Source: Craspedostauros australis
Lineage: Eukaryota
Direction: 5' to 3'
NCBI GenBank assembly: GCA_030167865.1
Contig: JALAGF010003431.1
Coordinates: 1 to 51,752 of the forward strand
Length of the DNA: 51,752 nt
Part shown: positions 18,014-44,782 of the stretch, in pieces
Layout of the letters: every line of letters begins with the position of its first letter
Position numbering within the stretch: position 1 is the stretch's first letter
The notes under the pieces: model-generated
The model's input: the letters and a program-made list of their open reading frames with translations, nothing else
Told to the model about the DNA's origin: nothing
Database searches by the model: none
Program-made: the position numbers and the translations under genes

Positions 18014-18919
18014 AATCCAAATAATGTGAGCAAGATGAATCGCGTGAATATCCGTTCAGAGACACAGGTGGTCTTATGCAACAGAACGGTATTGCATGCT
18101 GTCCCTGTTTCCGCGTCAGTCTTTGCCGTTATTTACAGCTGCGCGAGCATGATCTCGAGCATAATATTACTTTTCTCTATCGTAGAGAAGTACAAATGCT
18201 CTGCTCGAGAATAGACGCAATCTGCACTGCTCTATCCGTTTCGTATTATATGTTCGAGCCATTGACGGCAGCTTCACTGGAGAACACCTCTCTTGTGCCA
18301 TGTGGTCCGGTTGGATGGACTGCGCAGGTCGTACTGCTACCATCGGCCATTGTTGTGCAACTGTCCAGGATACGAGTAAAGTACAAGGGCCCTCAGCGTA
18401 TGTAGGTACCACACGCACGTTGTAAACAACTAAAGGTTTTACATTATTCTGGTCACTCCACTGTATTGCTCTCCAAAGTCTTCAAAACGTACCTCGTTGC
18501 TCGTATGGTGTTTGTGGCCTCCCTCCACTCTCCGTTTGTCGCCATGTCCGTGCGTATTTCTAGTCGTGCGTACGAGGCACAAATGACCACACACGTTTTC
18601 GAAGAGTTTCGTGACAACAACACACAGAACCATTCTGGAGATGGCGCCACATACGACTGCTTGGCAGTTTCAAATCACATTTTCCTCACAGACGTTGCGC
18701 TCTTGCGAGTTCCTTTCCCACCGAAGCGACGCAAGGACACAGGGTCAAAAGAATCTGAAGCAGACCATCACCAATGACTCGTTTCCACGCTCTTCAAGAA
18801 GTCACAACCTCCACATCACCGCTGCCGTCGCTGCCAACATTGCTGCAGATATCATCACACGACGAGTGTGGACAGAACGCGTCATTCGCGGCTTTGACTC
18901 CACTAACATCCACGCCAAG

Positions 18920-20623
18920 ATGGCTCCCGATGACACAGCGACTGCCATGAATGATGGTGGAAATACAGTTCTCAACTCTTACTACGGATCGATTGAACCT
19001 GACGCGAGCCGCCTCTCGACCAGCTCTGCTGCTGCTGCTGCTGCTGCTGCTGACGTTGACGTTGACGTTGACACAAGCGAACAGAGTCCCCGAACCTCGA
19101 GGCCGGCGACGTATTTGGACATAGTCGTCGAGAATGAAGGGTTCCGCTACTTCCTCATGAGCTACATGATCACCCACGCAGGCGAATGGCTGACGTACAT
19201 CGCCACGATCAGTTTCATCGAGGAGCAGATGGATCAGCAATCCCGCACCGCCATATCCCTCTTGATATTCATCCGATTGATCCCGAACGTGCTCCTCTTC
19301 GGTTTAGGCGGAAGCTTGGCGGATTCCGTCGATCGCCGCAAGCTCATGATCCTGCTGGATGTCTGCGGCGCGCTCTGCTCCCTGCTGTTCATCGTGGCAT
19401 ACAACTTGGAATCCATAGCGCTGATCTACGTCGTGGCATTCGCGCAAAACTGCGTCGCTGGATTGTACGCGCCGAGCTGGTGCAGCATCCTTCCCATGCT
19501 CGTGGATGACAATGAAGAGCATCTGCAGAAGGCGAATATCATGGCTGGGTTGGCATGGTCAGTCATGATGGCGCTGGGCTCAGCGCTGGGTGGATATGTG
19601 ACCAGCACCCTCGGAAGTACGGCATGCTTCTTGCTCGACAGTCTCACGTACTGCGCCAGTGCTTACCTTCTTCGTCTAATATCTGGCAGCTTCAAAGTGA
19701 CGGAGCTGTACAACGAAGATGGGAGCGCGAAGCGCCCACTGAAAGATGAAGTCCAGGCAAACGCTGTAAGCGTTGAGGGAAGTGACAAGGACGATGATGA
19801 TGCCAGCAATGACAACGACGACGGTGACGACGACGGTGACGATGAAGAGGATCAGCACAAACGGACAGCAGGTTCTGTGCCGCCAAATACAGGCACGATC
19901 GCAATGACGATGGAATGCCTTGACTACCTCAGGAACTCCGACTTTGGCCTGCTGGTACTGATGAAGGGTTCCTCATGCTTGGCATACGGAGGTGTCGACA
20001 TCCTCAGCGTCGCGATCTCCGAACAAGGCCCAACAGCCAACGCTTCGACTCGCCTGGGTACTATCTTTGCCTGCGTTGGCGCCGGCTGCCTCATCGGCCC
20101 GTTGGTGTCGGAGAACTTCACTAGTCTGGATCGTCCGTGGACGTTGCAGATATCTTGTATCGTCTCTTTCGGCCTAATCGGTGCCGGGCTTTCCGCCTGG
20201 GCCGTCGTCGACTCATTCTGGTTGCAATGCGTCTTCACCATTGTCCGGGCGAGCGGATCGTCAATAGTGTACATCGATTCGGACATACTCTTGCAGAAAT
20301 TCGCGAAGCCCACAATGCTGGGGCGGGTAATGGCTTTGGACTACGCCTTTGCGTTACTCGCTGAAAGTCTGACGGCATTCCTGTGCGGGTACATCATGGA
20401 TTCCAACCCTGAAGTATTCACCGTGAAGGCGATGAGTTCGTGCCTGGCAACCACCTCGCTCCTCTTCATCTTGTTCTGGTCTTGGTATCATGTCACGGGG
20501 CATGGCGCAACGCACCCGGATGTCATCGCAGACGCACAGCTCGGGGGAATGTGCACAAGCACAGCGACTGAGAGCGCCGGCGGCCGACAGAAAAAGCAAT
20601 CCTCTCAGACCTCCCTGAAATAG
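18920..20623 (+). CDS. Major facilitator superfamily transporter (MefA/DHA3-like), paralogue A
   Basis: About 12 hydrophobic segments; MFS motif A 'GGSLADSVDRRKLMILLD'; 'LLQKFAKPTMLGRVMAL'. First ATG 18920. Confidence 0.92.
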   Translation: MAPDDTATAMNDGGNTVLNSYYGSIEPDASRLSTSSAAAAAAAADVDVDVDTSEQSPRTSRPATYLDIVVENEGFRYFLMSYMITHAGEWLTYIATISFIEEQMDQQSRTAISLLIFIRLIPNVLLFGLGGSLADSVDRRKLMILLDVCGALCSLLFIVAYNLESIALIYVVAFAQNCVAGLYAPSWCSILPMLVDDNEEHLQKANIMAGLAWSVMMALGSALGGYVTSTLGSTACFLLDSLTYCASAYLLRLISGSFKVTELYNEDGSAKRPLKDEVQANAVSVEGSDKDDDDASNDNDDGDDDGDDEEDQHKRTAGSVPPNTGTIAMTMECLDYLRNSDFGLLVLMKGSSCLAYGGVDILSVAISEQGPTANASTRLGTIFACVGAGCLIGPLVSENFTSLDRPWTLQISCIVSFGLIGAGLSAWAVVDSFWLQCVFTIVRASGSSIVYIDSDILLQKFAKPTMLGRVMALDYAFALLAESLTAFLCGYIMDSNPEVFTVKAMSSCLATTSLLFILFWSWYHVTGHGATHPDVIADAQLGGMCTSTATESAGGRQKKQSSQTSLK

Positions 20624-21434: not shown

Positions 21435-23117
21435 ATGACCCCCAAGTCCTCGCTCGATGACGCAGGTCCGCACGCAGATGTCAATGCAGATGCGAGCGAG
21501 AATCCGAACAACAACAATGGTGGCGACAACTATGGGTCCATCGCTTTCGCCAACGGCATGGACAGCACTGTGGACCCGTCTGCGACTACTAGCGCCGGCA
21601 AGATGGAACAGCCGCCCGACCAATCCAAGTCGGTCTCGTACTGGGATTTGATGTCCCACAGCAGCGGTTTTCGGTACTTCATGTCAAGCTACATGATCAC
21701 CATGGTCGGCGAGTGGCTGACGTACGTGGCAACGATCACCTTCATCGAGGAGCAGATGAGTCATACATCCCGCACCGCCATCTCCATCTTGATCCTCATT
21801 CGGCTGATCCCGAACGTCTTGTTCGCCGGCGTCGGTGGGACCTTGGCAGACACCGTCGATCGTCGCAAGCTCATGATCGTGCTGGATATCTCCGGCGCGC
21901 TATCAGCGCTCTTCTTCATCGTGGCTTACAATCGACAATCCATCGGTCTGATGTATGCCGCCACATTCGTGCAGAATTGCATTGCCGGGCTGTACGGGCC
22001 CAGCTTCTCGAGCATCCTTCCGATGCTCGTTCCCGTCGAAGGAGAGTATCTGCAAAAGGCCAATGTCGTGGGGGGCATAGCGTGGTCCTTGACGATGTCG
22101 GTTGGATCGGCGTTTGGTGGTTACATAGCCGGGGTCTTTGGGAGTAACGTCTGCTTCCTCCTTGACAGCCTCACCTACCTTGCCAGCGCTGGTCTCCTTT
22201 TCTGCATTTCCGGAAACTACAAAGCAACCGAGGTCTTCGGCGAAGATGGAAGCACCAAGCCCTTGCTTAAAGATACACACAACAAGAATTCCGCGGCTGC
22301 CACGAACGAAGGCGGCGGCGACGACGACGCAAAAGGATCGCGAGATCCCGAGCCTGAAAAACAGGGCGTCGTCGCCATGACTCTCGAATGCCTGGACTAC
22401 CTCAACAACTCGTACTTTGGCTTGTTGGTCTTCATGAAGGCTTCGTCATGCTTCGCATACGGTGGCGTTGACGTCATCAATGTCGCAATATCTGAAGAAG
22501 ATCCAACCGCCAACACCTCGATGCGCCTGGGTTTCATCTTCGCCTGTCTCAGTGGCGGTGCTCTCATCGGCCCCTTCGTATTCGAGATCTTCACCAGCTT
22601 GGATCGGCCATGGACTAGCCAGATAGCTTGCATTGTGGCTTTGGTCTTCATCGGGATTGGGTTGGCGGGTTGGGTGATCTTCGATGCCTTTTGGGTGCAA
22701 TGCATATTTGCCACCATCCGAGTCATCGGGTCAGCGACAATCTACATTGATTCGGACCTGATGCTGCAAAGGTTCACCAAGCCCACCATGCTGGGACGCG
22801 TGATGGGACTGGTGTACTCAACGTCACTGTTCGCAGAAGCCGCATCGGCATTCCTTTGCGGATACATCATGGATCTGGATCCAGAATTCTTCACCATTAA
22901 AGTCATGAGCACAATCCTTTCCGGCATCGCTTTTCTCTTCGCGGCACTTTGGACGGCCTACCACTTGTCGGGACGTGGCGGCGCTCATCCAGATGCACTC
23001 AAGAATGCGCAGCAGCACCAAGCAAAGGAGGTTGCTGCGCGCAGCAGAGACGTGAGCCGTGCATCATCGAACGTGACGGAAGCAGCAGACCCAGTCAATC
23101 TTCCAGAGATTGCATGA
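21435..23117 (+). CDS. Major facilitator superfamily transporter (MefA/DHA3-like), paralogue B
   Basis: 'GGTLADTVDRRKLMIVLD' and 'LQRFTKPTMLGRVMGL'; colinear with, and highly similar to, the upstream MFS gene. First ATG 21435. Confidence 0.92.
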   Translation: MTPKSSLDDAGPHADVNADASENPNNNNGGDNYGSIAFANGMDSTVDPSATTSAGKMEQPPDQSKSVSYWDLMSHSSGFRYFMSSYMITMVGEWLTYVATITFIEEQMSHTSRTAISILILIRLIPNVLFAGVGGTLADTVDRRKLMIVLDISGALSALFFIVAYNRQSIGLMYAATFVQNCIAGLYGPSFSSILPMLVPVEGEYLQKANVVGGIAWSLTMSVGSAFGGYIAGVFGSNVCFLLDSLTYLASAGLLFCISGNYKATEVFGEDGSTKPLLKDTHNKNSAAATNEGGGDDDAKGSRDPEPEKQGVVAMTLECLDYLNNSYFGLLVFMKASSCFAYGGVDVINVAISEEDPTANTSMRLGFIFACLSGGALIGPFVFEIFTSLDRPWTSQIACIVALVFIGIGLAGWVIFDAFWVQCIFATIRVIGSATIYIDSDLMLQRFTKPTMLGRVMGLVYSTSLFAEAASAFLCGYIMDLDPEFFTIKVMSTILSGIAFLFAALWTAYHLSGRGGAHPDALKNAQQHQAKEVAARSRDVSRASSNVTEAADPVNLPEIA

Positions 23118-25840: not shown

Positions 25841-26881
25841 ATGAACATGAACATGAACACCAGCATGGATGTGAACGCGAATGGCAGAGCATGCAAGATG
25901 AACGCCATCCTCCAGGTCATCATGATGATGGTGACGCTTCAGCTTCACTTGCAACCTGCCGTTGCTTTCGCGCCGGTGTCCACCGCTGCGTTGATGCAAC
26001 GCTGCCATCACAAGCAGCATCAACAACCGCAAAGATTGGCCCAGCTCGCATCCTCTGTCATTGAGGCACCCGCGACGGTCGAATCTTCGGAAGTTCTGCG
26101 GGTCGATTGCATGCCAGAACCCTTGCCCGAGACGCTGAAGAACGACTACTACTTCCTGCGCCATGGCCAGAGCACGGCCAACGTGGCGGGCATCATTTCT
26201 TCCGCACGGTCGCTGGCGTACAGCACGAAGCATGGATTGACGGGGCTGGGTTACGAGCAGGGCATGTCATCAGCCAATCCGCTGCTGGAAATGATGCGAT
26301 CCAACCGCAAGGAGAGCAGAACGGACATCGTCTTCGTGACCTCGCCGTTCGCACGCGCCAAGCAAACCGCCGAGGCCTGCCAAGGCGAGATGCGCCGCCT
26401 TCTGGAGTCGTCGGACACCACCGAGTTGGAGTACACCATCCAGGAGGAGATCGAATACGACGACCGCCTGATGGAGCGGTACTTTGGACGATTGGACGGT
26501 GAAGCGCTGTACACGTACGCCTACGTGTGGCCCATGGACAGAGTGGATGTGACGCACACCGCGTTCGACGTGGAATCCGTGGCGGCCGTTTGCACGCGGT
26601 TCCGCGAATTCGTGATGAGCATGGAGGCGGAGAAGGAGGACGCGATCATCGTGATGGCGTCGCACGCGGATGTCTGCCAGATCTCGCAACTGTACGCCGC
26701 CAATGTGGAGAACGTGGGCGAGTTCAGCTCGTACCGATTCGCCAACGGCGAGGTGCGGAAGATGGCGCTGACGGATGAGCTGCTGCCCGAGCCCAGTCCG
26801 TTGGAGGCACCGAAGCGTGGCACGGTCCTTTACACGGAAATGGTTGCGGCCGCCGATGCTGTGGAAGAAAACGAGGAATGA
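25841..26881 (+). CDS. Plastid-targeted histidine phosphatase (phosphoglycerate mutase-like superfamily)
   Basis: Signal peptide 'MNAILQVIMMMVTLQLHLQPAVA|FAP' (ASAFAP motif; start may be 25841 or 25898). Catalytic 'LRHGQS', 'TSPFARAKQTA', 'LMERYFG' and 'ASHAD' are present. Confidence 0.9.
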   Translation: MNMNMNTSMDVNANGRACKMNAILQVIMMMVTLQLHLQPAVAFAPVSTAALMQRCHHKQHQQPQRLAQLASSVIEAPATVESSEVLRVDCMPEPLPETLKNDYYFLRHGQSTANVAGIISSARSLAYSTKHGLTGLGYEQGMSSANPLLEMMRSNRKESRTDIVFVTSPFARAKQTAEACQGEMRRLLESSDTTELEYTIQEEIEYDDRLMERYFGRLDGEALYTYAYVWPMDRVDVTHTAFDVESVAAVCTRFREFVMSMEAEKEDAIIVMASHADVCQISQLYAANVENVGEFSSYRFANGEVRKMALTDELLPEPSPLEAPKRGTVLYTEMVAAADAVEENEE

Positions 26882-28405: not shown

Positions 28406-31400
28406 ATGGCACAATCCCGATTGCGCGTGCAGCTGCTGCGGTCCCAAAGCCAGCAGACTGACCACCAATCGGACAACCGCCATCATCAGCATCACCATCG
28501 TCATCACCATCGTCATCACCATCGTCAGAAGCAGAAGCAGCAGGAACCAAAACATCAACGGAGACCGAAAACGAGGAAGCGCTGTGACAATCACAACGCC
28601 CAGAGCAACATCAAAGTCAGAATGATGGGCGCAATTGCATCGGCCGCAATCGTGGTTGCTTTCGTGTTTGCTGTGGATGCTTCGCTACCTTCCATCGTGG
28701 TTGCTGCCGCCGCGACAACGACGATAGCATCGTCCTTGAGCGGCCATTCCTCTCCATCCCATGCACTGCGCCATGAACTGCACGAAAAAGCCTCCCACTC
28801 CGATCAAATGACAGCTTCTGGGCCGGTGGAACCAATGCAGATCACACTGACGAGTATTGTCACCCCAGCTCCGCAGCACGTGCCGCAGCATGCTCCAAGC
28901 ACACAGCAGCTGTTGTCACCTCTCCATGACTCTCATGAAATGATGGATCAGACCGGTGCTACGCTAGATACTGAGGAGGATTACAACAACGACAACAACA
29001 ACAATCACGACACCGACAACGGTATCAACATTGATGCCAGGATCAATATCGGCGAGAGCCACGCTCTGGAAGTGCCTCAGCATCACTTCCCACCAGAGCA
29101 ACAGCAGCAACAACAGCAGCAGCAACAGCATCAACTTCAGTTGCAACGGACGCTCATGGCGATAGACTCCAACTCTTCAGCTTCCATCGCCAAATCATGC
29201 AACCCGAAGCAGCCCTTCAATGAGGCAAAGTACCAGACATCCTACACGGTCGGCGTCCTGGCCATCCGGGGTGTCGAAAGCGCCTTCAGAGAGTTCAACG
29301 CGACCTTCGCAGACTACCTCTCCGCCACTGCGGGCCGCCATTTCGTGGGCGCGAACATCACGTTCCGCATGGAGGCACTCAACTTCAGGACCGTGTTCGA
29401 GAGCGTCGCTGACGAATCCGTTGATTACGTCTACGTCAACCCATCCGCATTCTCCTGCATCGAGTCGCAGTACACCGCAAGATCGCTCGTATCGCAGATC
29501 TCCAGACGGAAAGTGCAGGGCAATGTCTACGACCTCAAGAAGTTTGGCGGGGTCATTGTCGCGCGCTCCGATCGCGACGACATCACCTCCGTCCTGGACT
29601 TGGAGGACAAGATCGTCGCTGCGGCGAGCATTTCGGGCTTGGGCAGCGGCCAGATGCAATTCCTCGAGATGATCAACAATGGCATGTCCTACATCAACGA
29701 CCCCAAGCAGCTCGTCTTCACATCCAACCAGGGCAAGGTGGTGCAAGGCGTCCTCAACCGCACCTTCGACGTTGGCTTTATCCGGACGGACCAGCTCGAG
29801 CGATCCAAGGACTGGAACGGCGACCCCGTCAACCTCTTCGACTTCAAGATCATCGACGCCAAGGAGAATCTAGAGATCGACGGCGAGCCCTTTCCCTTCT
29901 CAGCCTCCACGCCCCTCTATCCGGAATGGAACTTGGCGGCGCTGGATCACGTCTCCGATGAGATATCGCAGGAGGTCCAGTCAGCCATGCTTGCCATGTC
30001 AGAGCATGCCGAGGTTGTGCAGGAGTACATTGCGTGCAAGGAGGAACACGATTTCTCCATCGCCGACACCGACGGCGCCTCATCCTTGGAGGAATACTGT
30101 TCCGAACAGGTCGTGTTCCAACGGCATATCGACAACGGCGGTCAGGTGCGTTGCGATACCACCTTAGAAGTCGCGCAACTCGCGCACACCGCCATGCAGC
30201 TGGGGAAGAATGCTGGATGGCAAACCACGCTCAGCTACATGCAGCTACGAAGCATGCAGGAGGCGACGGGATTCATTCAATTCGATCCGACGGACAACAT
30301 CTGGAAGTGCGTGCGATCGGCGAGCATCTATGACTCCATCTCCTGCCCCGCCAACTTTGTGCGAAAGTCAGAGTCCGAAGTCCTCGAGGGTTGCGACCGC
30401 GCAGGGTTGATGTGCGCCAAAGGCTACCAATGTCTGTGCTCACCGTGCAAGCAGGTCAAGCAATGCGTCACAGGGGCGTGGGTCGGTGATAAATGCATCA
30501 GCTACAGAGTCTTGTTGCCCAGCATCATCCTGCCGTGCTTCTTCATTTTGGCGGTCGTCACACTCTGGTGCTTCGAACTCAAAAGGCGGCAGGCCGACGC
30601 CGTCTTCCACGTCCAACCGGAGGACCTGGTCTTCATGGACCCGCCCGTCGTCATCGGACAGGGCACGTTCGGACAGGTCCTGCTGGCGGAATACCGTGGC
30701 ACGCAAGTCGCCGTCAAACGAGTCATCCCGCCTTCGGATCACAGGAAGAAATCCACGTTGGACAACATCATGGCGAAATCCACAGGCCGCACGAAGCATC
30801 CCAATGCTGGCGTCGGCAACAGACGAAGTCGCGTGAGCATCAGCGTCGATGGCAGAAACCACAAGCACGACAATCGTCCCAACATCACAGCCAGTACCGG
30901 CGATGGCGACTCATCCTCGCATCATGTGCACACGCAGGTAGCGGAGGACGGCTACCGCGACTTGGAGACGCAGCACCAAGGATCAGGATCCGAATCGCTC
31001 AACTTAGGACTCATGTCGCTGGGACCTGGCATCTTGCGACGCAGTCGCAACAAGGGATTATCCTCCTCCCTCGACGGTATCCGCTCCGCCACATCCTCCA
31101 GCCGCGGCAGCCGAAGTTACGCCCGCCTCAAAGCAGACTTCATCATGGAGATGAAGCACCTGGCGCGTTTGAGACACCCTTGCATCACCACGGTCATGGG
31201 TGCCGTCATCTCGCGAACCGAGGAGCCGATGCTGGTGATGGAGTACATGGGCAATGGCTCCCTCTTCGACGTGCTTCACAACCCTTCGATTCCCATGGAT
31301 TCTGTGCGCAAATTCCTCATGCTGCAAAACATCGTGCAAGGACTGAGGTTCCTGCACTCCGCCAACCCGCAGGTGGTGCACGGCGACCTCAAATCGCAGA

Positions 31401-34303
31401 ACGTGCTGGTCGATTCCAACTTCCGTGCCAAGGTGACCGACTTTGGTTTGAGCGCCAAGAAGACCATGAACGCGGTTGGCACACCGTACTGGATGGCCCC
31501 GGAGCTGCTGCGCGGTGAATCCTCCAACACGGTCGAAAGCGACATCTATTCCTTCGGCATTGTGTTGTTCGAGATCTTTTCGCGCAAGGTGCCGTACCAT
31601 GGCGAAGATCATGAGAATGTGTTGGTGGACGTGTGCAACTTATCCCGCAACAAACGGCCTAAACTTCCAAACACTTGCACCGAGCGGATCGTCAACATGT
31701 ACGAGCAGTGCGTCCACTTCGATCCCACGCAACGACCCACTTCCGAGCAGATGGATCTGTTCCTGAAGGTGGAGAAGGAAGTGATCGAGCACACCGATAC
31801 TCTGGAAGCCACGAATAAGGAACTCGAAGAGGCGAATCATCAGATCGCCGCCGCGGCGGCACTGCAGTTGCAGCACTTTGCCTGCATGTCGCATGAGATC
31901 CGCACCCCTCTGAACTGCATCATCGGGCTGTCCAGCTTGATGGAGGAGTCGGATCTCACGGCACAGCAACGCGAGTCGATGCAAATGATTGTGTCATCCG
32001 GAAATCTCCTGCGTTGCATCGTCGACGATGTGCTCGACTACTCCAAGTTGGAATCCGGCAACGTCGTCATCGACGTGCGGCGCGTGAACTTGCAAGTGCT
32101 GCTCTCCAGCGTCATCCAGTCCATCCGCATAAGCCCAGTCGCTGAATCCAAGCACCTCACCATCCGATGCGATTACAGTCCTTCCTTGACGGAGCACTTC
32201 CAAATGGACAGTCGAAGGTTGCAGCAGATCCTGTACAATCTGCTGAGCAATGCCATCAAGTTCTCCAAAGCTGGCGGCCAGGTGGAACTGAGCGTGTCGA
32301 TCCTGAAGAACGCCCGATCGACGACGGTGTCGCACCCAGATTCGGGACGCATCATCCGCTTCGTCGTTCTCGACCACGGCAAGGGAATCGAACGCTCCGA
32401 TTTCAGGAAGATCTTCGAGCCCTTCAAGCAGACGCGCACCGGAATCGAGAACTTGGACGGTGGGACAGGCCTCGGGCTGGCCATCACGAAGCGGTTGGTG
32501 GAAGCCCTTGGCGGCTGCATCAACGTAGATTCGATCGTCGGGTCATGGACAAAGTTCACTGTGGATTTCCCATTCGAAGGGCAAACCGCGGCTCTCGAAA
32601 AGGCGGCAGATCGACTCAGCAAGGCGGAGATTTGCTTGATCGGCGAACCTAGCGACGACACCCGGCAAGCAATGAACGTCTTTGGTCTCTTCTCAATCCG
32701 GATCGTGCAATACAACGAGCTGACGACATGCTTGGAGAAGATCAAGAACAGGCGCAACGACCAGGAAGCACGTTCGCTCATCTTCCTGATGCAGGAGGGC
32801 AAGTACGACCCTGCAGCATTCAATCGTTTACCGCCGCATTCACAGGCCTCGTTGGTGACCTACGGTCCCAAATTCATCGTGAAGCACGCCAAGTTCCACT
32901 ATAATTCGCTGACGGACGTCTTCCCCATCGTGTTGCTGGAAACGCTGGGAAGCTGCGTGTCCAACATCAGCCCAGTGATGAACTCACGCCGCTGGTCGCA
33001 AATCGATCCCAAGCACGTCGCGCAGGCCAGCAGCAAGATTCCGATGTCCGACCTGCGCCTCATCATTGCGGATGATAACATCGTCAATCAGAAGGTGCTG
33101 AAGCGCATCGTCAATCGGCTGGGCATCAAGCACGCCAAGGTGGTTGGCGACGGGAAAGAAGCTGTGGAATTGGAGGCCAGCGAAGAATTCGACATCATCC
33201 TCATGGACATGCAAATGCCCGTCATGGATGGGCTGGAGGCGTGCAAATTGATCAACAGACGCGTCGGAGGTCATCCACGCGCAAAGATCGTATTCGTCAC
33301 GGCTCACGTTTCCGATGAATTCAAGACAACCTGCCTGGAGAATGGCGCGACGGGATATCTTCCCAAGCCATGCACCATCGACAGCGTCAAGAGCGTCATC
33401 CAAGAAGCAGCTCCGATGGTGAAAGATTCATCCGCAGGCGCTTCGTCAGATGAGAAGGCAGACAGCGAAGGGGGATCGGGCCCGCTCTACCCGGCGCATC
33501 CAAGAAGGACGACACTCACGCAGACGACGATGTCGATGGCGGCGGCGGAAGCAGCGTTGACTGCATCGTCCACGGGAACAAGCCAACCGGCAGGCGAGGG
33601 GGTCACAGTTGCAGAGTCTTCATTGAGCCCACCCCCAGTTGCAAAGCCACCACTATTCTCGTCGCTGGCTGATCATACGCCCAAATCGCCAGCCGGGCCT
33701 CTACTTGTACCGCTGCCACCTGCCGGTTCATCGCACGGCGCATCGAAAGAAAGAGCTGCCACTGCCGGAGGTGTCGGGGAAAGCACTTCAACCAATCACG
33801 CTCGAGGATCGGCGGTGGAAGCGTTGGAAACAGCACCGGTAGCAGAGATGGCACCAGTACCGCCTGCGTTTGCACAACAGAAGCAAGCTCCTGCGCTCAC
33901 ATTCAGCGATCTTCGCGTTCTGATCGCCGATGACATCGTCGTGAACCAAAAGGTTCTGAAACGTATCGTGAATCGTATCGGCATCAAGCACGTGAAGGTG
34001 GTGGACAACGGCCGCAAGGCAGCTGATCTGGAAGCCGAGGAAGCCTTCGATGTCGTGCTCATGGATTTACAAATGCCAGTCATGGACGGGCTGGAGTCTT
34101 GCAAGATCATCGTCAGCCGGACGCCCACCATGTCGGAAGGCAATCGCCATCCGCCTGCAAAGATCGTGTTTGTCACGGCGCATGTTTCGGAAGAGTTCAA
34201 GACCAACTGCATGGCCAACGGTGCTGCGGGGTACCTTCCGAAACCTTGTTCCGTCGGCAGCGTGAAAGACATACTCATGCGTGTCCTGTCGATAGAAGAA
34301 TGA
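28406..34303 (+). CDS. Single-pass receptor: PhnD/phosphonate-binding-like ectodomain - Cys-rich region - TM - Ser/Thr(TKL) kinase - HisKA - HATPase - degenerate REC - REC - REC
   Basis: Uninterrupted 1965-aa ORF with a signal-like stretch from ATG 28622. PBP domain ~29243-30000 ('YTVGVLAIRG', 'VNPSAFSCIE', 'FGGVIVAR', 'DVGFIRTD', 'TPLYPEW'); TM ~30509-30575. Kinase motifs GQGTFG, VAVK, HGDLK..N, DFG, GTPYWMAPE, DIYSFG. H-box 'SHEIRTPLN', N 'NLLSNAIKF', G1 'DHGKGI', G2 'GGTGLGLAI'. Two receivers: 'ILMDMQMPVMDG' and 'VLMDLQMPVMDG'. Confidence 0.95.
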   Translation: MAQSRLRVQLLRSQSQQTDHQSDNRHHQHHHRHHHRHHHRQKQKQQEPKHQRRPKTRKRCDNHNAQSNIKVRMMGAIASAAIVVAFVFAVDASLPSIVVAAAATTTIASSLSGHSSPSHALRHELHEKASHSDQMTASGPVEPMQITLTSIVTPAPQHVPQHAPSTQQLLSPLHDSHEMMDQTGATLDTEEDYNNDNNNNHDTDNGINIDARINIGESHALEVPQHHFPPEQQQQQQQQQQHQLQLQRTLMAIDSNSSASIAKSCNPKQPFNEAKYQTSYTVGVLAIRGVESAFREFNATFADYLSATAGRHFVGANITFRMEALNFRTVFESVADESVDYVYVNPSAFSCIESQYTARSLVSQISRRKVQGNVYDLKKFGGVIVARSDRDDITSVLDLEDKIVAAASISGLGSGQMQFLEMINNGMSYINDPKQLVFTSNQGKVVQGVLNRTFDVGFIRTDQLERSKDWNGDPVNLFDFKIIDAKENLEIDGEPFPFSASTPLYPEWNLAALDHVSDEISQEVQSAMLAMSEHAEVVQEYIACKEEHDFSIADTDGASSLEEYCSEQVVFQRHIDNGGQVRCDTTLEVAQLAHTAMQLGKNAGWQTTLSYMQLRSMQEATGFIQFDPTDNIWKCVRSASIYDSISCPANFVRKSESEVLEGCDRAGLMCAKGYQCLCSPCKQVKQCVTGAWVGDKCISYRVLLPSIILPCFFILAVVTLWCFELKRRQADAVFHVQPEDLVFMDPPVVIGQGTFGQVLLAEYRGTQVAVKRVIPPSDHRKKSTLDNIMAKSTGRTKHPNAGVGNRRSRVSISVDGRNHKHDNRPNITASTGDGDSSSHHVHTQVAEDGYRDLETQHQGSGSESLNLGLMSLGPGILRRSRNKGLSSSLDGIRSATSSSRGSRSYARLKADFIMEMKHLARLRHPCITTVMGAVISRTEEPMLVMEYMGNGSLFDVLHNPSIPMDSVRKFLMLQNIVQGLRFLHSANPQVVHGDLKSQNVLVDSNFRAKVTDFGLSAKKTMNAVGTPYWMAPELLRGESSNTVESDIYSFGIVLFEIFSRKVPYHGEDHENVLVDVCNLSRNKRPKLPNTCTERIVNMYEQCVHFDPTQRPTSEQMDLFLKVEKEVIEHTDTLEATNKELEEANHQIAAAAALQLQHFACMSHEIRTPLNCIIGLSSLMEESDLTAQQRESMQMIVSSGNLLRCIVDDVLDYSKLESGNVVIDVRRVNLQVLLSSVIQSIRISPVAESKHLTIRCDYSPSLTEHFQMDSRRLQQILYNLLSNAIKFSKAGGQVELSVSILKNARSTTVSHPDSGRIIRFVVLDHGKGIERSDFRKIFEPFKQTRTGIENLDGGTGLGLAITKRLVEALGGCINVDSIVGSWTKFTVDFPFEGQTAALEKAADRLSKAEICLIGEPSDDTRQAMNVFGLFSIRIVQYNELTTCLEKIKNRRNDQEARSLIFLMQEGKYDPAAFNRLPPHSQASLVTYGPKFIVKHAKFHYNSLTDVFPIVLLETLGSCVSNISPVMNSRRWSQIDPKHVAQASSKIPMSDLRLIIADDNIVNQKVLKRIVNRLGIKHAKVVGDGKEAVELEASEEFDIILMDMQMPVMDGLEACKLINRRVGGHPRAKIVFVTAHVSDEFKTTCLENGATGYLPKPCTIDSVKSVIQEAAPMVKDSSAGASSDEKADSEGGSGPLYPAHPRRTTLTQTTMSMAAAEAALTASSTGTSQPAGEGVTVAESSLSPPPVAKPPLFSSLADHTPKSPAGPLLVPLPPAGSSHGASKERAATAGGVGESTSTNHARGSAVEALETAPVAEMAPVPPAFAQQKQAPALTFSDLRVLIADDIVVNQKVLKRIVNRIGIKHVKVVDNGRKAADLEAEEAFDVVLMDLQMPVMDGLESCKIIVSRTPTMSEGNRHPPAKIVFVTAHVSEEFKTNCMANGAAGYLPKPCSVGSVKDILMRVLSIEE

Positions 34304-35428
34304 GAGTACTTGGCACGGAGATGAAAGACGGGATTGGGGAATGACGCCGAATCAGTGCCGATACGCCTTCGTCGTATGATCGTCACAAGAGGAGAACATG
34401 GAGATGACGAGGCACGAATGGACCGTGATAAGTAATTGATCCTTGATGCACTCTATTGGTGCATGCTCGTACTTTATTCTAGAGCGCAAACACTTTTGAA
34501 GGACTTTCAATCAAAACCTCGTCTGAGTTGGTGTGCATTCTCAGATTCGGACTCGTCGAGTGACCCTTGGCTATCACCATCCGGTGCATTGTGGATTGGT
34601 GCTCTACTCGCCACATGTTCGTTGTCCTCTCTGTGGTAGCGAATCGTGTCATGGGCAATCGGAAGGGGACTGGTGATGTGCGTGAAAAGAGGCGAAAAAC
34701 GGAAGCTGGCGGTGCGAAGAATCGGAAGCGAGGCGGTGATGGGCACACGAACACACCAGAGTAGTCCCCCTCCAGAGAACTCGGAGTGTCATTGTCGGAG
34801 TCCAAGTAGAGTTGGGTGTCTTTCTTTGCGTTTTATATATTCTTTATTATGTATCTCGCTCTTCCTTGCAGTTGCTTGTGTGTACGAGTTGATAGCGGTA
34901 TGGAGATGGTATCGTAAGTGTAGTACCACGCTAAGTCTCCTCTCTCTTTGGAGAGACTGCGGAGGCGCGAAGGCTTGAATGCATCCGTACGACTCGCAGT
35001 ATGGTGCGGTATGAATCACGACTATTCATCAGATCTTCGTATTGCGACGGAGAGATTGCCACCGTCGCATTTCGTTGATGCGACGCTATTTTTTGCGTTG
35101 CCTCATTCGTTCGCTCATCAATCCCTCGCTCTGGCTTCTACCTCGCTGTCAACATCAGCTGACACCATCGGCCAGAGTATCTTCGTTGGGTTTGTCGCAT
35201 CGGCTTGTTCCCTCCCCCTCTTGCCAACGACGTTGGCCCATTACAGTGATTCGGTCTTCGTCGAAGCCCGTGCAAAATTGTTGCTGGCATTGCTGTTGTG
35301 AATGTTCCCTCCCCTTCACAATCAAAATGCCCCATCTCCGACTCTTCTTGCTTGTTGCCATCGCTTGGCCGTCTGCTGCTCTCTGTGACGTGCTGACCAC
35401 CCAAAATCGCAGATCAGCATTGAGTACT

Positions 35429-42508: not shown

Positions 42509-44782
42509 TCACAGAATATCACGATGATACGCCGCCAGCAATCCCAAACCTGAGAATGCCACAGCGTAGAAACTCAATTCTCCAAGGATCTGCAAATCGC
42601 GCAGCATGGACATGTCGTTGGACATCCACATGCCGTTGGTCGTTTTGGTGTTGGCGTGCACGATCGTTGCATCCGTGTCCTCGCCGCTGCTTACCGACAT
42701 GCTTGTCAGTCCGATGGAGGGGCTGGCCTTGCTGTTGCCAGCATCCTTCGTCGTCGTCTTTTGGCCGTCGATGGCGCCGGCATCGATACCACCAGCACCA
42801 CCATCATCTATGTCATGATCGCGCAGCAACTCGAATCCCCATGATGCCTCTTGCAGTTTGGGATTGCTGCGCGAGACGTTGACGGCTTCGTTCTCCACCC
42901 GAAGCAAACCCCACAACGTTCGCCGCAGGATCTCTGCTGACGCGATCGCTGCATTGAAGTAGGCGGAAACATCGCCTTGGAATGTGGCATTGAGGATGCC
43001 TGCCTTGTTGAGGTAATGGCGCGGTATGAAACTGAGCGTCCAGCAAAATCGCAGAGCGAAATTGATGACGAAGATGCACCAGTAGACGCTGGTGCGGGAG
43101 TAAATCCTCCGCTGTCGGAATTGCAGTCGCGGGAAGGAGGAGAAGATGGATCGCGATGTTGTCCCTATTTTCGCTGCTGTGGCCGAAGTTGTTGTATCGT
43201 CGACGAGCACGAACAAATTCCAATCCATGAAGACATCCCACCAGATCTGGTAGAGCGTGGCGAAGACGAAGGAACCCAGCCAGAGGCTGGTCTGCTTCAT
43301 GTTCGGATTGTAAATGCCAAACAGGGCGACTTGCGCAGCGATGAAGTACTTCAAGGCATTCCCCAGATAAGGCCATCTCTTCTTGTTGTCGTAGGATTGG
43401 CGCAGGTTCTGCAGGAAGCGCCACCACAGCGGGGATGCCACGCACATCGGGAGCAGCCAGGTGTGGAGGATCCAGTTGTTCTCCAAGGGACGGTCGGCGG
43501 TGTCCCACCCGTACGATTGCTCCCACCATCCTCTGAGGCCGGAGAGGAGGTAGAAGCAGGTGAAGCAGATGTCCTGCATGGGACGCACAGAAGATGTGAT
43601 GATATCTCCGATGAAACCATCTCGGAAGGTGACGTTGTGCAAGGGTGCGCTGGTGGTGAGGTAGACGATCTTCCAGAAGTCCTTGCGGCGCGACCATGGG
43701 AGGATGGCCTGGATGACGCTGCCGAAGAATAGGACGAGTGGGAAGACGGGCGCGGCGATGGCGGCGACGCCATGGAGGATGGTGGCATCGGCCATGCCAT
43801 CGACGTATTTGCCACCTTCCGCACTGCTGATGGTGAAGAGGAACAAGGTGATGAGGATGAAGAGGAGGTTGTTCATGGCCGCTTTGGCAAGGTCGAGCGG
43901 ATTGGGAGGCTCCGGCTCCTCCAGCAAAGCCTCCACAATCTCATCGTCATACTCGTCATCGATGCTGCCACCAATAACATCGTTGACGTTGTCCGCATCA
44001 GCATCCATGCTGATTCCATTGCCAACGGCATTGCCTTTGGTGCCACCGTTGTTGTTGCCGCTGATGCTGATGCTGTTGTTGTTGTTGTTGTTGTTGTTGT
44101 TCGAGATTGTAGTTTTCATCGACGTTGGATGAGCTGTGAAACCATCGTTGCCGCCATCATGCAGCGACGAAGGCAGACGTTGCGGTGGCTGCGAAGGAGG
44201 AGAAGACGATGACGAAGCAGAGGCTACCGCTGGTGAACTTGATGATGAAGCTGCTGCTTGATCTTCTACCACCCCGTCGGGCTCCAGTCTTTTCTGTGAC
44301 TGTCCGTGTCTGTGTGATGGATCATCCTCACCGCCGTCAACGCCGTCAACGCCGTTTTCGATATCGTCGTCATCATCGTCGTCGTCGTCTTGATCTGTGT
44401 CATCGGCATCATGGTGCTCGAGATCCCCACCGTAACCACCGACGGATGAGTAAGCCCCGTTCTCTCGAATCATGGCATTGACAACGGCCATCGTGTTGGT
44501 GTCGGGCGCTGGCTGAAAGAGCAGATGACCCACCATCCTGGTCCCCACGGTGCCCGACCAGACCCAGAGGGCCAGCGCCGCACACCACAGCAGCAAATTG
44601 ATCTCGAACAAGGACCGGAAGACCCTGAGGCTGGGTGGGTGCCGCGTGAATGCCGTGACGACCGCGAGATGATGCGGCGGCTCGCCATCGTGCGTTTGGT
44701 TGTCTGTCAGCAGGAAGATGCAGATCAGCAGCGGGATCACCAGCACGGCCCGCCTCAGTATCGAGGAGCGGGTTGCCGCCAT
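42509..44782 (-). CDS. EXS-domain protein (XPR1/SYG1/PHO1/ERD1 family) without an SPX domain
   Basis: ATG 44782. 'VTFRDGFIGDIITS', 'PLWWRFLQNLRQ', 'PYLGNALKY', 'YQIWWDVFMDWNLF', 'NFALRFCW' and 'EILRRTLWGLLRVENE' are EXS motifs. Confidence 0.92.
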   Translation of the reverse strand: MAATRSSILRRAVLVIPLLICIFLLTDNQTHDGEPPHHLAVVTAFTRHPPSLRVFRSLFEINLLLWCAALALWVWSGTVGTRMVGHLLFQPAPDTNTMAVVNAMIRENGAYSSVGGYGGDLEHHDADDTDQDDDDDDDDDIENGVDGVDGGEDDPSHRHGQSQKRLEPDGVVEDQAAASSSSSPAVASASSSSSPPSQPPQRLPSSLHDGGNDGFTAHPTSMKTTISNNNNNNNNNSISISGNNNGGTKGNAVGNGISMDADADNVNDVIGGSIDDEYDDEIVEALLEEPEPPNPLDLAKAAMNNLLFILITLFLFTISSAEGGKYVDGMADATILHGVAAIAAPVFPLVLFFGSVIQAILPWSRRKDFWKIVYLTTSAPLHNVTFRDGFIGDIITSSVRPMQDICFTCFYLLSGLRGWWEQSYGWDTADRPLENNWILHTWLLPMCVASPLWWRFLQNLRQSYDNKKRWPYLGNALKYFIAAQVALFGIYNPNMKQTSLWLGSFVFATLYQIWWDVFMDWNLFVLVDDTTTSATAAKIGTTSRSIFSSFPRLQFRQRRIYSRTSVYWCIFVINFALRFCWTLSFIPRHYLNKAGILNATFQGDVSAYFNAAIASAEILRRTLWGLLRVENEAVNVSRSNPKLQEASWGFELLRDHDIDDGGAGGIDAGAIDGQKTTTKDAGNSKASPSIGLTSMSVSSGEDTDATIVHANTKTTNGMWMSNDMSMLRDLQILGELSFYAVAFSGLGLLAAYHRDIL

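Follow-up and report, generated by a model that had tools for sequence, protein, structure and literature searches.

Does a single diatom gene encode a receptor that joins an extracellular binding protein to both a eukaryotic-type protein kinase and a histidine kinase (HK), and if so, what might such a protein sense and how might it report? Diatoms are major primary producers, and their perception of the chemical surroundings is little understood. The question was raised by a gene of the nuclear genome of a diatom, probably a raphid pennate to judge by the nearest relatives, found in a stretch of 51,752 nucleotides that is called the window below. Positions 28406..34303 of the forward strand, on which all features described here lie, form one uninterrupted frame of 5898 nt, running from ATG to TGA in the standard code and encoding 1965 aa. 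A preliminary description had read this frame as a sensor, a Ser/Thr kinase and a hybrid histidine kinase in one polypeptide; the single frame, the domain order and the intact catalytic motifs were borne out by ORF analysis, Pfam searches and location of the motifs.

The N-terminus and the extracellular part

Hydropathy detected only two hydrophobic segments in the 1965-aa protein, aa 73-100 and aa 700-722. The first (28622..28705), starting with MMGAIASAAIVVAFVFAVDA, is a signal peptide or a signal anchor. The signal-like peptide announced earlier therefore exists as a hydrophobic segment, but not at the N-terminus, as it starts at Met73, behind a His/Gln/Arg-rich low-complexity stretch (28406..28621, aa 1-72). 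Because of this arrangement, the start may be Met73, or else the segment may be a signal anchor; aa 1-72 are either a cytoplasmic tail or, if translation begins at Met73, an untranslated leader. They are not conserved, and homologues begin directly with the hydrophobic signal segment. Next comes an extracellular Gln/Ser/Ala/His low-complexity spacer (28706..29191, aa 101-262), which is not conserved in alignment A1. A Pfam search of aa 1-275 gave no significant match.

The ectodomain proper (29234..30280, aa 277-625) was assigned by Pfam, AF2, Foldseek and VIA-align to the type-2 periplasmic-binding-protein (PBP) fold, with an inserted helical segment. The Pfam match is to Phosphonate-bd (PF12974), over aa 299-538, with 76.8 bits for a cut-off of 27. 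The AF2 model reached a pLDDT of 92.8, and VIA-align superposed its residues 12-364 or so on XAC2383 (Z 24.1), ArrX (23.2) and PtxB (22.3), with PhnD1, AioX, GpxB and HtxB also in the Z range of 20-24. As modelled, the fold is that of the PhnD/PtxB/AioX class. For XAC2383, no function is given in the accessible parts of the literature mentioning this protein. A sequence search with the ectodomain against solved structures returned only GlnH, with an E-value of 0.21, and the output of a profile search with alignment A2 against the same structures was dominated by kinase matches.

PhnD contacts its ligand through two Tyr and an STS-H motif (PMC5700983). Mapped through bacterial intermediates, residues Y47, Y93, S127, T128, S129 and H157 of E. 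coli PhnD correspond to F327, G381, G411, L412, G413 and Q442 of the diatom protein: all six phosph(on)ate-contacting side chains are replaced in this profile alignment, made at 12-13% identity. Its score and E-value are circular, since the same four bacterial sequences stand on both sides. A single-sequence hhalign comparison differed from it by a 3-residue register shift at the STS loop, and also on the equivalent of PhnD D205. The profile alignment was preferred because its bacterial rows, those of all four bacterial PBP-HKs, retain the Ser and the His of the PhnD pocket in the same columns. The sensor can thus be called PhnD-like, as it had been, for its fold and Pfam family, but not for its ligand side chains. 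Binding proteins of the PhnD/PtxB group serve an ABC transporter; the domain described here is fused to a TM helix and to signalling domains. The pocket-equivalent positions are nearly invariant among 16 HK-type and 28 other diatom PBP sequences from many species (the latter being 27 PBP-kinase proteins lacking an HK, plus P0049), and ectodomains of HK-type and cyclase-type diatom receptors are 46-58% identical.

Modelled as a homodimer, the ectodomain scored 0.72, against 0.00 for the best of three controls; the three runs shared 100% of contacts, and the partner pLDDT was at least 80. The predicted interface comprises aa 353-361, 512-529 and 606-616. In the calibration, this mark was reached by 21/30 solved same-chain pairs and 0/23 solved single chains from microbes, and by 17/29 pairs and 0/30 single chains from eukaryotes, but there by only 1 of the 7 devoid of an older solved relative. 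The model supports self-binding of the ectodomain, short of a demonstration. Between ectodomain and membrane lies a Cys-rich stalk (30281..30502, aa 626-699). Twelve Cys are counted over aa 544-697, and nine positions (C635, 647, 663, 670, 676, 678, 681, 687 and 697) do not vary among 17 sequences; a Pfam search of aa 599-745 gave no significant match. The single transmembrane helix (30503..30571, aa 700-722) is followed by a conserved juxtamembrane segment (KRRQAD..., 30572..30643, aa 723-746), whose spacing is fixed: 24 aa separate K[KR]QAD from the kinase G-loop in 11/11 pattern-matching sequences, out of 22 examined.

The two cytoplasmic kinases

The membrane-proximal kinase (30644..31768, aa 747-1121) is a TKL-type Ser/Thr protein kinase, matched by PK_Tyr_Ser-Thr over aa 909-1116 (161 bits, 3.2e-47, above the curated cut-off, like all Pfam matches reported for this protein); its closest solved relative is CTR1 (1.1e-40). 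The motifs are GQGTFG at 751, VAVK with Lys771, the alphaC Glu915, HGDLKSQN at 992, DFG at 1012 and APE at 1031-1033. HGD replaces HRD here, as in 16/17 HK-type and 25/27 guanylate-cyclase-type (GC-type) sequences, and lack of the Arg makes this a non-RD kinase. A Ser/Gly/Arg-rich insert of 130 aa (30731-31120, aa 776-905) separates beta3 from alphaC. An unspliced in-frame intron was considered as an explanation and dismissed, since an insert of variable sequence stands at that site in all homologues. As every catalytic residue is kept, the domain is most likely an active non-RD kinase, and it probably autophosphorylates at the least, perhaps in its Ser-rich insert, to tune the receptor. This activity may nevertheless be dispensable: in 3 of the 17 family members (P0011-P0013) DFG is replaced by N-[VI]-[SG], the other parts being kept, and the diatom relative P0049 consists of PBP, HATPase and REC, with no kinase domain. 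A dual output, by Ser/Thr and His-Asp phosphorylation, is possible.

The second half starts with a putative signalling-helix/coiled-coil linker (31769..31870, aa 1122-1155), delimited by sequence comparison and fixed length. S-helices are coiled-coil segments some 40 aa long, with an ERT signature at their centre. The window protein reads EHT instead; ERT is found in 12/17 family members and in the 4/4 kinase-less diatom HK-REC relatives shown. Then come the HisKA/DHp domain (31871..32059, aa 1156-1218; Pfam 9.1e-15), with the phospho-accepting His1163, and HATPase_c, the catalytic (CA) domain (32207..32578, aa 1268-1391; 5.1e-23), with its N box at 1282, G1 at 1323-1327, F at 1337 and G2 at 1352-1357.

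Further on, a degenerate receiver-like region had been noticed before, and the structural model agrees with this. A Pfam search of aa 1392-1555 gave no significant match, Response_reg included, and Foldseek alone gave weak matches, of E 2e-3 and worse. The AF2 model of aa 1392-1552 (pLDDT 84), however, retrieved receiver domains in 50/50 listed VIA-align matches (102-124 residues aligned at an rmsd of 2.3-3.2 A, with Z 10.0-11.2). Beta3 ends in FLMQE, where the family consensus is VCLxQED, and the acceptor Asp is absent. Segment 32609..32974 (aa 1402-1523) is thus predicted to be a true CheY-like receiver fold that lacks its acceptor, i.e. a pseudo-receiver.

Two Response_reg domains complete the protein. 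Receiver 1 (REC1; 33062..33400, aa 1553-1665) has DD at 1556/1557, Asp1601, Thr1632 and Lys1654; receiver 2 (REC2; 33917..34285, aa 1838-1960) has IADD at 1840, MDLQMP at 1885 with Asp1887, FVTAH at 1922 and LPKP at 1944. Between them runs an Ala/Ser/Pro-rich low-complexity linker (33413..33910, aa 1670-1835). The two receivers are identical at 80 of 118 aligned positions, and a second receiver is present in only two of the 17 family members, P0001 and P0002; by this comparison receiver 2 is a lineage-specific tandem duplicate of receiver 1. Pfam detected no HPt domain (PF01627) in the protein, nor in the 54 further ORF translations of the window. The complete His-Asp phosphorelay previously proposed was thus not confirmed, and the protein is a hybrid histidine kinase with two receivers.

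A diatom family and the origin of the fusion

Among the 120 matches listed, at least 16 database proteins have the order PBP-TKL kinase-HisKA-HATPase(-REC). They bear automatic names only; the 8 with a named source belong without exception to Nitzschia, Cylindrotheca, Seminavis or Bacillariaceae, P0008 being the Seminavis orthologue, and two (P0006 and P0011) carry MMETSP labels. MMETSP entries are transcriptome-derived. In the literature we found neither a description of this diatom PBP-kinase-HK family, nor one of any membrane receptor with a eukaryotic-type protein kinase between its sensor and a two-component HK. The system therefore appears undescribed, as had been suggested, but it is not unique to this locus; it belongs to a family that is small, conserved among diatoms and unstudied.

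The kinase G-loop, Lys, alphaC Glu, HxD Asp, Asn, APE Glu and Arg1110 are kept in 17/17 family sequences, and DFG in 14. For the histidine kinase, the H-box His is kept in 16/17 and the N, G1, F and G2 boxes in 17/17; the REC Asp and Lys are kept in 16/16, the incomplete P0017 being left out. Such residue conservation indicates purifying selection. In 19 of 22 sequences, 79 aa lie between the kinase 'RP' and the H-box His; P0003 and P0015 show this spacing too when their second RP is taken, and P0007 carries an insertion. Such constancy points to a rigid coupling of the kinase domain to the DHp.

At least 27 further proteins among the 120 matches have PBP and kinase domains and no HK; for 22 of these, a cyclase domain is among the precomputed ones. 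They represent the diatom PBP-TM-kinase-guanylate cyclase receptors, with or without a phosphodiesterase (PDE), which the preliminary description had correctly mentioned. They share with the window protein the PF12974 ectodomain and its pocket positions, the Cys-rich stalk, the TM, the juxtamembrane segment and the HGD-type TKL kinase. Their output is a class III cyclase, whereas that of the window protein, in which Pfam found no match to the Guanylate_cyc domain present in its sisters, consists of signalling helix, DHp, CA, pseudo-receiver and receiver. One of these receptors is annotated in Seminavis robusta as 'Receptor-type guanylate cyclase gcy' (P0043).

Separate domain phylogenies grouped the sensor and the kinase with the cyclase receptors, and the HK module with diatom HKs. 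In the HK tree, 22 kinase-linked modules formed one clade (SH-aLRT 97), nested in a 43-row diatom-like HK clade (99) that excluded bacterial PBP-HKs and cyanobacterial PK-HKs. In the kinase tree, 52 diatom-type kinases fell into one clade (99), with 4 cyanobacterial kinases outside it, and the 30 cyclase-linked kinases clustered together (87). HK-type ectodomains were nested among the cyclase-type ones in a 23-row clade (92), in a tree rooted on four bacterial PBP-HKs with long branches, whose key supports of 86 and 92 are not starred; both this tree and the kinase tree were 'quick' searches. HK-type and GC-type proteins are alike in sequence as far as '...RPxxExLDLxLK', at the end of the kinase domain; past this point, the HK-type continue with the 'ERT...LN..LE.AN...QLxHFACMSHEIRTPL' helix of kinase-less diatom HKs. 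These comparisons put the fusion junction at the start of the signalling-helix linker, around aa 1122. They also indicate that the N-terminal half (ectodomain, stalk, TM, juxtamembrane segment and TKL kinase) is homologous to the diatom PBP-kinase-guanylate-cyclase receptors, that the rest (signalling helix, DHp, CA, pseudo-receiver and receivers) is homologous to diatom hybrid histidine kinases, and that a single fusion, in the ancestor of this small family, brought the two together. The earlier proposal that a hybrid histidine kinase replaces the cyclase agrees with both the domain trees and the sequence shared up to the kinase end.

Mechanism, ligand and known systems

The reading we favour, with a probability of about 0.6, is a dimeric single-pass cell-surface receptor, made of a cyclase-receptor-like half and a hybrid-HK half, whose His-Asp output is switched by ligand. 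A small extracellular ligand would close the PBP cleft, the PhnD mode of phosph(on)ate binding being improbable. The altered geometry of the ectodomain dimer would be transmitted through the TM to the kinase domain, then by the fixed-length helix to the DHp, and would thereby switch autophosphorylation of His1163. The phosphoryl group would then pass to Asp1601 of REC1 and/or Asp1887 of REC2, and on to an HPt protein and a response regulator encoded by separate genes.

The TKL domain may also phosphorylate other proteins, as a second output. In another reading it is solely a transducer, comparable to the kinase-homology domain of animal receptor guanylate cyclases: a nucleotide-binding, dimerising relay from the membrane to the output helix. 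Having no protein substrates, it would leave one His-Asp output and no 'dual chemistry'. The domain occupies the same place as the kinase-like domain of receptor cyclases, and a profile to which the cyclase sisters contribute most aligns with natriuretic peptide receptor 1 across both kinase and cyclase (1.2e-69). The linkers flanking it are fixed in length, the three members devoid of DFG retain the rest, and the PBP-HK P0049 does without a kinase domain altogether. On the other hand, a purely structural module is not expected to keep the catalytic Lys, alphaC Glu, HxD Asp, Asn and APE in 17/17 HK-type proteins, nor H[GA]D in 26 of the 27 PBP-kinase proteins without HK (25 HGD, 1 HAD; P0043 has no HxD). 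We consider the pure transducer unlikely, though it deserves more weight than the other alternatives. An artefact of assembly or gene model, fusing two adjacent genes, would fit with the failure to find a full-length transcript for 28406..34303 in the sequencing runs searched: no run listed as RNA contained the stretch, and the only run that did, of guessed RNA type, yielded a single identical 934-nt contig (33577-34510) covering the locus in part, and three short low-complexity matches at 28481-28526. We regard it as nearly negligible, because the frame is unbroken over 5898 nt, the same order recurs in at least 16 proteins from independent sources, including the two with MMETSP labels, and the junction linker is fixed in length and conserved in sequence.

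As to the ligand, a sensor of phosphate, phosphite, phosphonate or arsenic oxyanions would account for the 76.8-bit PF12974 match and for the nearest solved folds, which bind phosphite, phosphonate, phosphate, arsenite or arsenate; sites that could hold an anion are also present, namely the conserved Arg288 and Arg460 and, where a helix begins, a loop rich in Ser and Gly. AioX, a solute-binding protein, stimulates AioSR (available part of PMC8050422), and diatom sensing of external phosphate is stated to be unknown in the portion of PMC11448323 at hand. The window also contains a histidine-phosphatase-family gene and an EXS-family gene, which count for little since gene order means little in eukaryotes. 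Such a ligand is improbable, given the loss of all six PhnD side chains in the alignment at 12-13% identity; moreover PF12974 includes, according to the accessible text of PMC10942540 and the VIA-align matches, a sterol binder and glycerol-phosphate binders, a diversity by which the family does not fix the ligand. Even less probable, in our opinion, is that the receptor responds to an anionic organic signal, such as a sulphated sex pheromone or infochemical of benthic pennate diatoms. The sections of PMC4726125 available report that SIP+, an acidic, sulphated metabolite, induces a transmembrane guanylyl cyclase/phosphodiesterase in Seminavis robusta, which the authors hypothesised to be the SIP+ receptor via its extracellular domain; they do not mention PBP or kinase domains in it. 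The sister-family protein P0045 combines PBP, kinase, cyclase and PDE, and among the named listed matches the HK-type occurs only in pennate genera. A pocket nearly invariant across many species is nevertheless unlike what species-specific pheromone receptors would have.

Since this pocket is almost invariant in HK and guanylate-cyclase versions alike, diatoms may read the same molecule through three chemistries. The idea is improbable: cGMP, His-Asp and Ser/Thr phosphorylation would all report one extracellular molecule, the superfamily would be a plasma-membrane sensor of a key anionic cue, and binding would differ from that of every solved PF12974 protein. If it were true, the cue might be a sulphated signal, phosphate or a different nutrient oxyanion. 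As a conserved and well-delimited surface receptor, the family provides a putative ligand-binding domain that is predicted to fold well and could be expressed for screening. It can further be seen as a case of natural receptor engineering, one sensor-TM-kinase cassette being followed by a cyclase or an HK output, with the junction mapped to a few residues.

Outside diatoms, bacterial sensor hybrid HKs with PF12974 (P0075-P0077 and P0115), as well as AioX/AioS, likewise have a PhnD-class domain that reports to an HK with a receiver. AioX, however, is a separate protein acting on the AioSR two-component system (PMC8050422, same part), and the bacterial PF12974-HKs have PAS domains between sensor and HK, where the window protein has a eukaryotic protein kinase. 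Their HK modules fall outside the diatom HK clade, and their pocket retains the Ser and His missing from the diatom proteins. Cyanobacterial HstK-type proteins, fungal group X and Dictyostelium DhkG resemble the window protein in combining, within a single chain, an ePK-like domain with a hybrid HK. The cyanobacterial P0085, P0097, P0113, P0116 and P0119 have AAA_16/GAF domains, for which Pfam found no match in the window protein, and no ectodomain; P0085, P0097, P0113 and P0119 lie outside the diatom kinase clade (support 99), and four sequences labelled as bacterial PK-HK, together with P0116 (labelled 'other'), lie outside the diatom HK clade. In the consulted part of PMC6324907, fungal group X combines S/TKr and GAF, and DhkG carries a TyrK domain with its HK, which contradicts the previous statement that known fusions of this kind are all soluble AAA/GAF types.

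Animal receptor guanylate cyclases, such as natriuretic peptide receptor 1, and Venus kinase receptors are similarly built, with a PBP-type ectodomain, one TM, a kinase-like domain, a coiled coil and a dimeric output. The ectodomain of animal receptor guanylate cyclases belongs to another PBP class, and their kinase-homology domain is catalytically dead, having lost the catalytic Asp. In the window protein, by contrast, the catalytic residues of the kinase domain are intact, and the output is an HK. Venus kinase receptors terminate in a tyrosine kinase (PMC2680970 and PMC4026697, available parts).

Domain organisation of the receptor

The receptor gene (window 28406..34303, + strand) is one unbroken open reading frame of 1965 codons, running from ATG to TGA in the standard code, with a G+C content of 0.55-0.57 that matches the surrounding window (0.51-0.585). 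Five Pfam families, each over its curated cut-off, were found in the product: Phosphonate-bd (PBP; aa 299-538, 76.8 bits), PK_Tyr_Ser-Thr/Pkinase (PK; aa 909-1116, 161 bits), HisKA (aa 1156-1218), HATPase_c (aa 1268-1391) and, in two stretches, Response_reg. As an observation, the preliminary description of a single-frame receptor joining a PhnD-like sensor, a Ser/Thr kinase and a histidine kinase (HK) with receivers was fully borne out, each named motif being at the kind of place described. The phosphorelay had also been called complete, which was overstated: Pfam finds no HPt domain in the protein. Hydrophobic segments are limited to two, aa 73-100 and 700-722, so that the residues between them are predicted to be extracellular and all those past aa 722 cytoplasmic. 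The first 72 residues, rich in His, Gln and Arg, have no counterpart in homologues, which open straight with a hydrophobic signal segment, and Met73 may be the true start. At the other end, a 934-nt contig from a small public run, for which an RNA type is a guess, is identical to window 33577-34510. It covers the final 727 nt of the frame and 207 nt past the stop, and would give a 3′ UTR of at least 207 nt if it is RNA.

The kinase domain alone best matched CTR1 (1.1e-40), then TAK1, MLK, DLK, RIPK1 and CSK, which upholds its assignment to the TKL group. Between beta3 and alphaC lies an insert (aa 776-905, 25% Ser+Thr) which we do not regard as an unspliced intron, because a variable, low-complexity insert is present there in every homologue. 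Behind the HK, aa 1392-1552 have no Pfam match. Their model consists of beta-alpha repeats (pLDDT 84); Foldseek matches were weak (best E 2e-3) and include the CikA pseudo-receiver, and with VIA-align (48,161 chains) all 50 matches listed were receivers (Z 10.0-11.2, rmsd 2.3-3.2 Å, 102-124 residues aligned). Given this receiver fold, and a beta3 end reading FLMQE, without the acceptor Asp, the region (aa 1402-1523) is a pseudo-receiver. The two true receivers, REC1 (Asp1601) and REC2 (Asp1887), both have the DD, D, T and K residues and share 80 of 118 aligned residues; their block occupies window 33062-34285, with a 166-aa Ala/Ser/Pro-rich linker between them. Among the 17 family members described below, a second receiver is found only here and in P0002, an unnamed metagenome protein that is the closest relative among the matches listed (68% identity, full coverage), which makes it a lineage-specific tandem duplication older than their split.

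A receptor family of diatoms

Residues 280-1965 were searched against 5.8 billion proteins; 7998 candidates were scored, 857 matched at E ≤ 0.001, and domains were assigned by custom HMMs in the best 120 of these and the query. Within this set the PBP-PK-HK architecture is found in 17 proteins, the query and 16 others, so the uniqueness first attributed to it was overstated. Scores fall from 1146 bits at rank 16 to 826 bits at rank 17, where the cyclase types start, so that few proteins with the full architecture are likely to have been missed within the searched lengths of 1080-3439 aa. Organism names are attached to eight of the 16 (Nitzschia (MMETSP), Seminavis robusta, Cylindrotheca (MMETSP), C. 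closterium, a Bacillariaceae MAG, Nitzschia inconspicua twice, and Nitzschia sp. Nitz4), all of which we take to be raphid pennate diatoms. Judged by these homologues, the gene belongs to a conserved, uncharacterised receptor family, so far of diatoms only, whose database entries were named automatically ("activated protein kinase catalytic subunit alpha-1", "signal transduction histidine kinase", "Guanylate cyclase"). Two members bear MMETSP labels; such entries are presumably peptides predicted from transcriptome assemblies, in which case the fusion is one mRNA in these relatives.

The same best 120 matches contained 27 PBP-PK proteins without HK (22 with a precomputed guanylate-cyclase domain; five with no cyclase listed, at least three of which, P0044, P0046 and P0047, stop inside the kinase domain), five diatom-type PK-HK proteins without PBP, and four bacterial PBP-HK proteins. 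In two of the five PBP-less proteins, P0029 and P0031, FG-GAP/VCBS repeats replace the PBP ahead of the same kinase-HK-receiver cassette. The diatom transcriptome protein P0049 (label "Amphi...") has, in aa 78-1081, the PBP ectodomain of these receptors and, behind it, HATPase and receiver, and lacks a protein kinase domain. Its ectodomain groups with those of HK-type receptors, and the branch leading to its HK module is very long; this could be a kinase-less variant occurring in nature, or else a product of transcript mis-assembly. P0045 (1625 aa) joins PBP, kinase, guanylate cyclase and cyclic-nucleotide phosphodiesterase in one chain and resembles, at class level, the pheromone-induced transmembrane GC/PDE of Seminavis (PMC4726125). 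The authors of that study hypothesise that the GC/PDE extracellular domain binds the sulphated pheromone SIP+, and the parts of its text consulted do not mention PBP or kinase domains. Differential expression of 17 cyclase genes is given in PMC8027222.

Full-text literature searches returned no description of a PBP-kinase-histidine-kinase receptor. A survey of 34 HKs of the diatom Fistulifera solaris (PMC6324907) names, in the text consulted, only PAS, GAF, CHASE and ethylene-binding types, and its figures or supplements may depict the present type uncommented; it also cites TyrK-HK fusions in Dictyostelium (DhkG) and S/TKr-GAF HKs in fungi. Nothing on this type was found in the consulted text of PMC6944256 and PMC3019232.

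Across the 17 sequences, conservation of the catalytic residues is high. The G-loop glycines, Lys771, Glu915, His992/Asp994/Lys996/Asn999, Pro1032/Glu1033 and Arg1110 of the kinase are invariant (17/17), as are the N, G1, F and G2 boxes; the H-box His is kept in 16 of 17 (Asn in the truncated P0017), and Asp1601, Thr/Ser1632 and Lys1654 of the receiver in 16/16. The catalytic loop reads HGD rather than HRD in 16 of 17 HK-type and 25 of 27 cyclase-type proteins. DFG is present in 14/17, the exceptions being the Cylindrotheca-type clade P0011-P0013, with N-[VI]-[SG] instead; one of these three also has HTD for HGD, and all keep every HK and receiver motif. The kinase of the window protein is probably active. 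Loss of DFG in one clade, together with the kinase-less P0049, suggests that the His-Asp relay may manage without kinase activity.

Origin of the fusion

Trees of the kinase (56 rows), HK (91 rows) and ectodomain (49 rows, with four bacterial PBP-HK domains as the root) were made by quick search, with SH-aLRT support only. In the first, 52 diatom-type kinases form one clade (99), apart from four cyanobacterial HstK-type kinases; 30 cyclase-linked kinases cluster (87), HK-linked kinases fall into four clades of unresolved order, and the five PBP-less PK-HK proteins adjoin P0009, an HK-type receptor (99). The HK tree unites all 22 kinase-linked HK modules in a single clade (97). This belongs to a larger clade of 43 rows (99), the rest of which are 12 kinase-less diatom-type HK-REC and nine HNOBA-HK-REC proteins; bacterial HKs, including PF12974-HK and cyanobacterial PK-HK proteins, are outside it. 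In the ectodomain tree, HK-type sequences lie within the cyclase types, sharing a 23-row clade (92) with P0049 and five sequences of cyclase type.

HK-type and cyclase-type proteins can be aligned as far as "...RP(T/S)xE(Q/E)LDLxLK"; past this point the latter read "RLDVENVEPG..." and the former "(V)ExKVKERTxRLExLNxELExANxKIASASAMQLQHFACMSHEIRTPL". This helix also stands ahead of the H-box in kinase-less diatom HKs (P0050-P0054, and P0061-P0074 with DRT/ERT). Since the shared sequence ends at the kinase/helix border and the helix recurs in kinase-less HKs, the fusion junction is placed near aa 1122. The most economical reading is a single fusion of the PBP-stalk-TM-TKL part of a receptor-cyclase lineage with the signalling helix-DHp-CA-pseudo-receiver-receiver part of a diatom hybrid HK, and the trees suggest that the FG-GAP forms arose by a subsequent ectodomain swap on the same kinase-HK chassis. 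The likely direction, though not a proven one, is replacement of the cyclase by the HK. It is indicated by the rooting of the ectodomain tree and by the occurrence of cyclase types in a wider range of taxa (one carries the label Rhizosolenia, which we take to be a centric diatom). The exchange of cyclase for histidine kinase proposed in the preliminary description thus holds in outline, and diatoms use the same receptor chassis with either output. HNOBA is a helical domain usually preceding guanylate cyclase domains; in the diatom-type proteins P0061-P0074 it lies immediately ahead of HisKA-HATPase-REC, a second sign of cyclase/HK exchange at the signalling helix.

Linker lengths are nearly constant. 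From the juxtamembrane K[KR]QAD to the G-loop there are 24 aa in all 11 pattern-bearing sequences (22 examined), and from the KRP motif to the H-box His 79 aa in 19/22; P0003 and P0015, two further homologues, have the same 79-aa spacing from a second RP. The relative P0007 has a 29-residue insertion within the otherwise fixed signalling helix, possibly an unspliced intron in the predicted gene. Such constancy is the pattern that a mechanically coupled helical relay would show.

Ectodomain, signalling and gene neighbourhood

Residues 262-720 were modelled with AF2 from an alignment of 48 sequences; the model had a mean pLDDT of 92.8 and was placed in the PhnD class by both Foldseek and VIA-align. 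XAC2383 was the best VIA-align match (Z 24.1, rmsd 2.3 Å, 257 aligned), before ArrX (23.2), PtxB (22.3), PhnD1 (20.8), AioX (20.2), GpxB (20.1), HtxB (20.0) and a bacterial sterol transporter (19.4). The PBP fold takes up model residues ~12-364, and the Cys-rich part comes next. Ligand contacts of the class are two Tyr, an STS loop, a His and a capping residue (PMC5700983, as far as consulted). E. coli PhnD was aligned to the diatom profile through the four bacterial PF12974-HK domains; the score being circular, the alignment alone was used. At its 12-13% identity, Y47 corresponds to F327, Y93 to G381, S127/T128/S129 to G411/L412/G413 and H157 to Q442, with E177 at D462 and D205 at W508, and all six side chains that contact phosph(on)ate in PhnD appear to have been replaced. 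Bacterial PF12974-HK rows keep the first Ser of the STS and the His. "PhnD-like" is therefore right for the fold class (Z 20.0-24.1) and misleading as a guide to the ligand, which cannot be named from the fold, PF12974 ligands spanning phosphite, phosphonates, arsenite, arsenate, glycerol phosphates and even sterols. Phosphate sensing in diatoms is stated as unknown in the consulted part of PMC11448323. In the window protein the equivalent region is lined by conserved Arg288, Arg460, Asp462, Glu507/Trp508 and a Ser/Gly-rich loop, SISGLGSGQ (aa 408-416). Pocket-equivalent positions are near-invariant in 16 HK-type and 28 other diatom PBP rows (27 PBP-PK without HK and P0049), which favours the view that paralogues differing in output recognise the same ligand or a shared ligand moiety.

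Ectodomain residues 15-435 were modelled as a homodimer in three runs, beside three controls. The score was 0.72 (best control 0.00), with contacts 100% alike between runs and partner pLDDT of at least 80. The dimer mark is reached by 21/30 solved one-chain pairs and 0/23 solved single chains of microbes, and by 17/29 and 0/30 of eukaryotes, only 1/7 for those without an older solved relative. A symmetric dimer through aa 353-361, 512-529, 606-616 and 631-633 is thus supported by the model but not shown. We propose that ligand-driven PBP closure would alter this dimer, and that the change would be relayed by stalk, TM and short juxtamembrane segment to the pair of kinase domains, then to the signalling helix, continuous with DHp helix 1, setting the balance of His1163 autophosphorylation. 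Phosphate would pass to Asp1601 and/or Asp1887, and on to an HPt protein and response regulator encoded elsewhere. The H-box sequence HEIRT fits HExxT, a motif that accompanies phosphatase activity in HisKA kinases, and the HK may be bifunctional. The likeliest first kinase substrates would be the receptor's own Ser-rich insert and linkers; a separate Ser/Thr output is possible, and the data can be explained without it.

The adjoining genes are ordinary eukaryotic nuclear genes, and no PBP, kinase, HK, HPt or receiver was found among the neighbours in the window. The receptor gene is preceded, at 1.5 kb, by a gene of the histidine-phosphatase superfamily, branch 1 (25841-26881, +), and followed, 8 kb downstream, by one for an EXS-family membrane protein (42509-44782, -). 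Both families include members linked to phosphate metabolism; their closeness here may be due to chance. Domain matches also marked a TRIP13-like AAA ATPase, a proteasome subunit, an LRR protein, an XPD-type helicase, an FrhB-type reductase and an EBP-like protein, together with a sigma-70-like factor (region-2 match; 1-1053, -) and a large PARP with zf-PARP, WGR, regulatory and catalytic domains and a C-terminal macro domain (47706-51566, -). Two MFS_1/MFS_3 transporter genes side by side on the + strand (18641-20623 and 21435-23117) are likely a tandem duplicate, and MatE transporter matches are divided between two frames (10498-11319 and 11631-12212, both +), which points to an intervening intron or change of frame.
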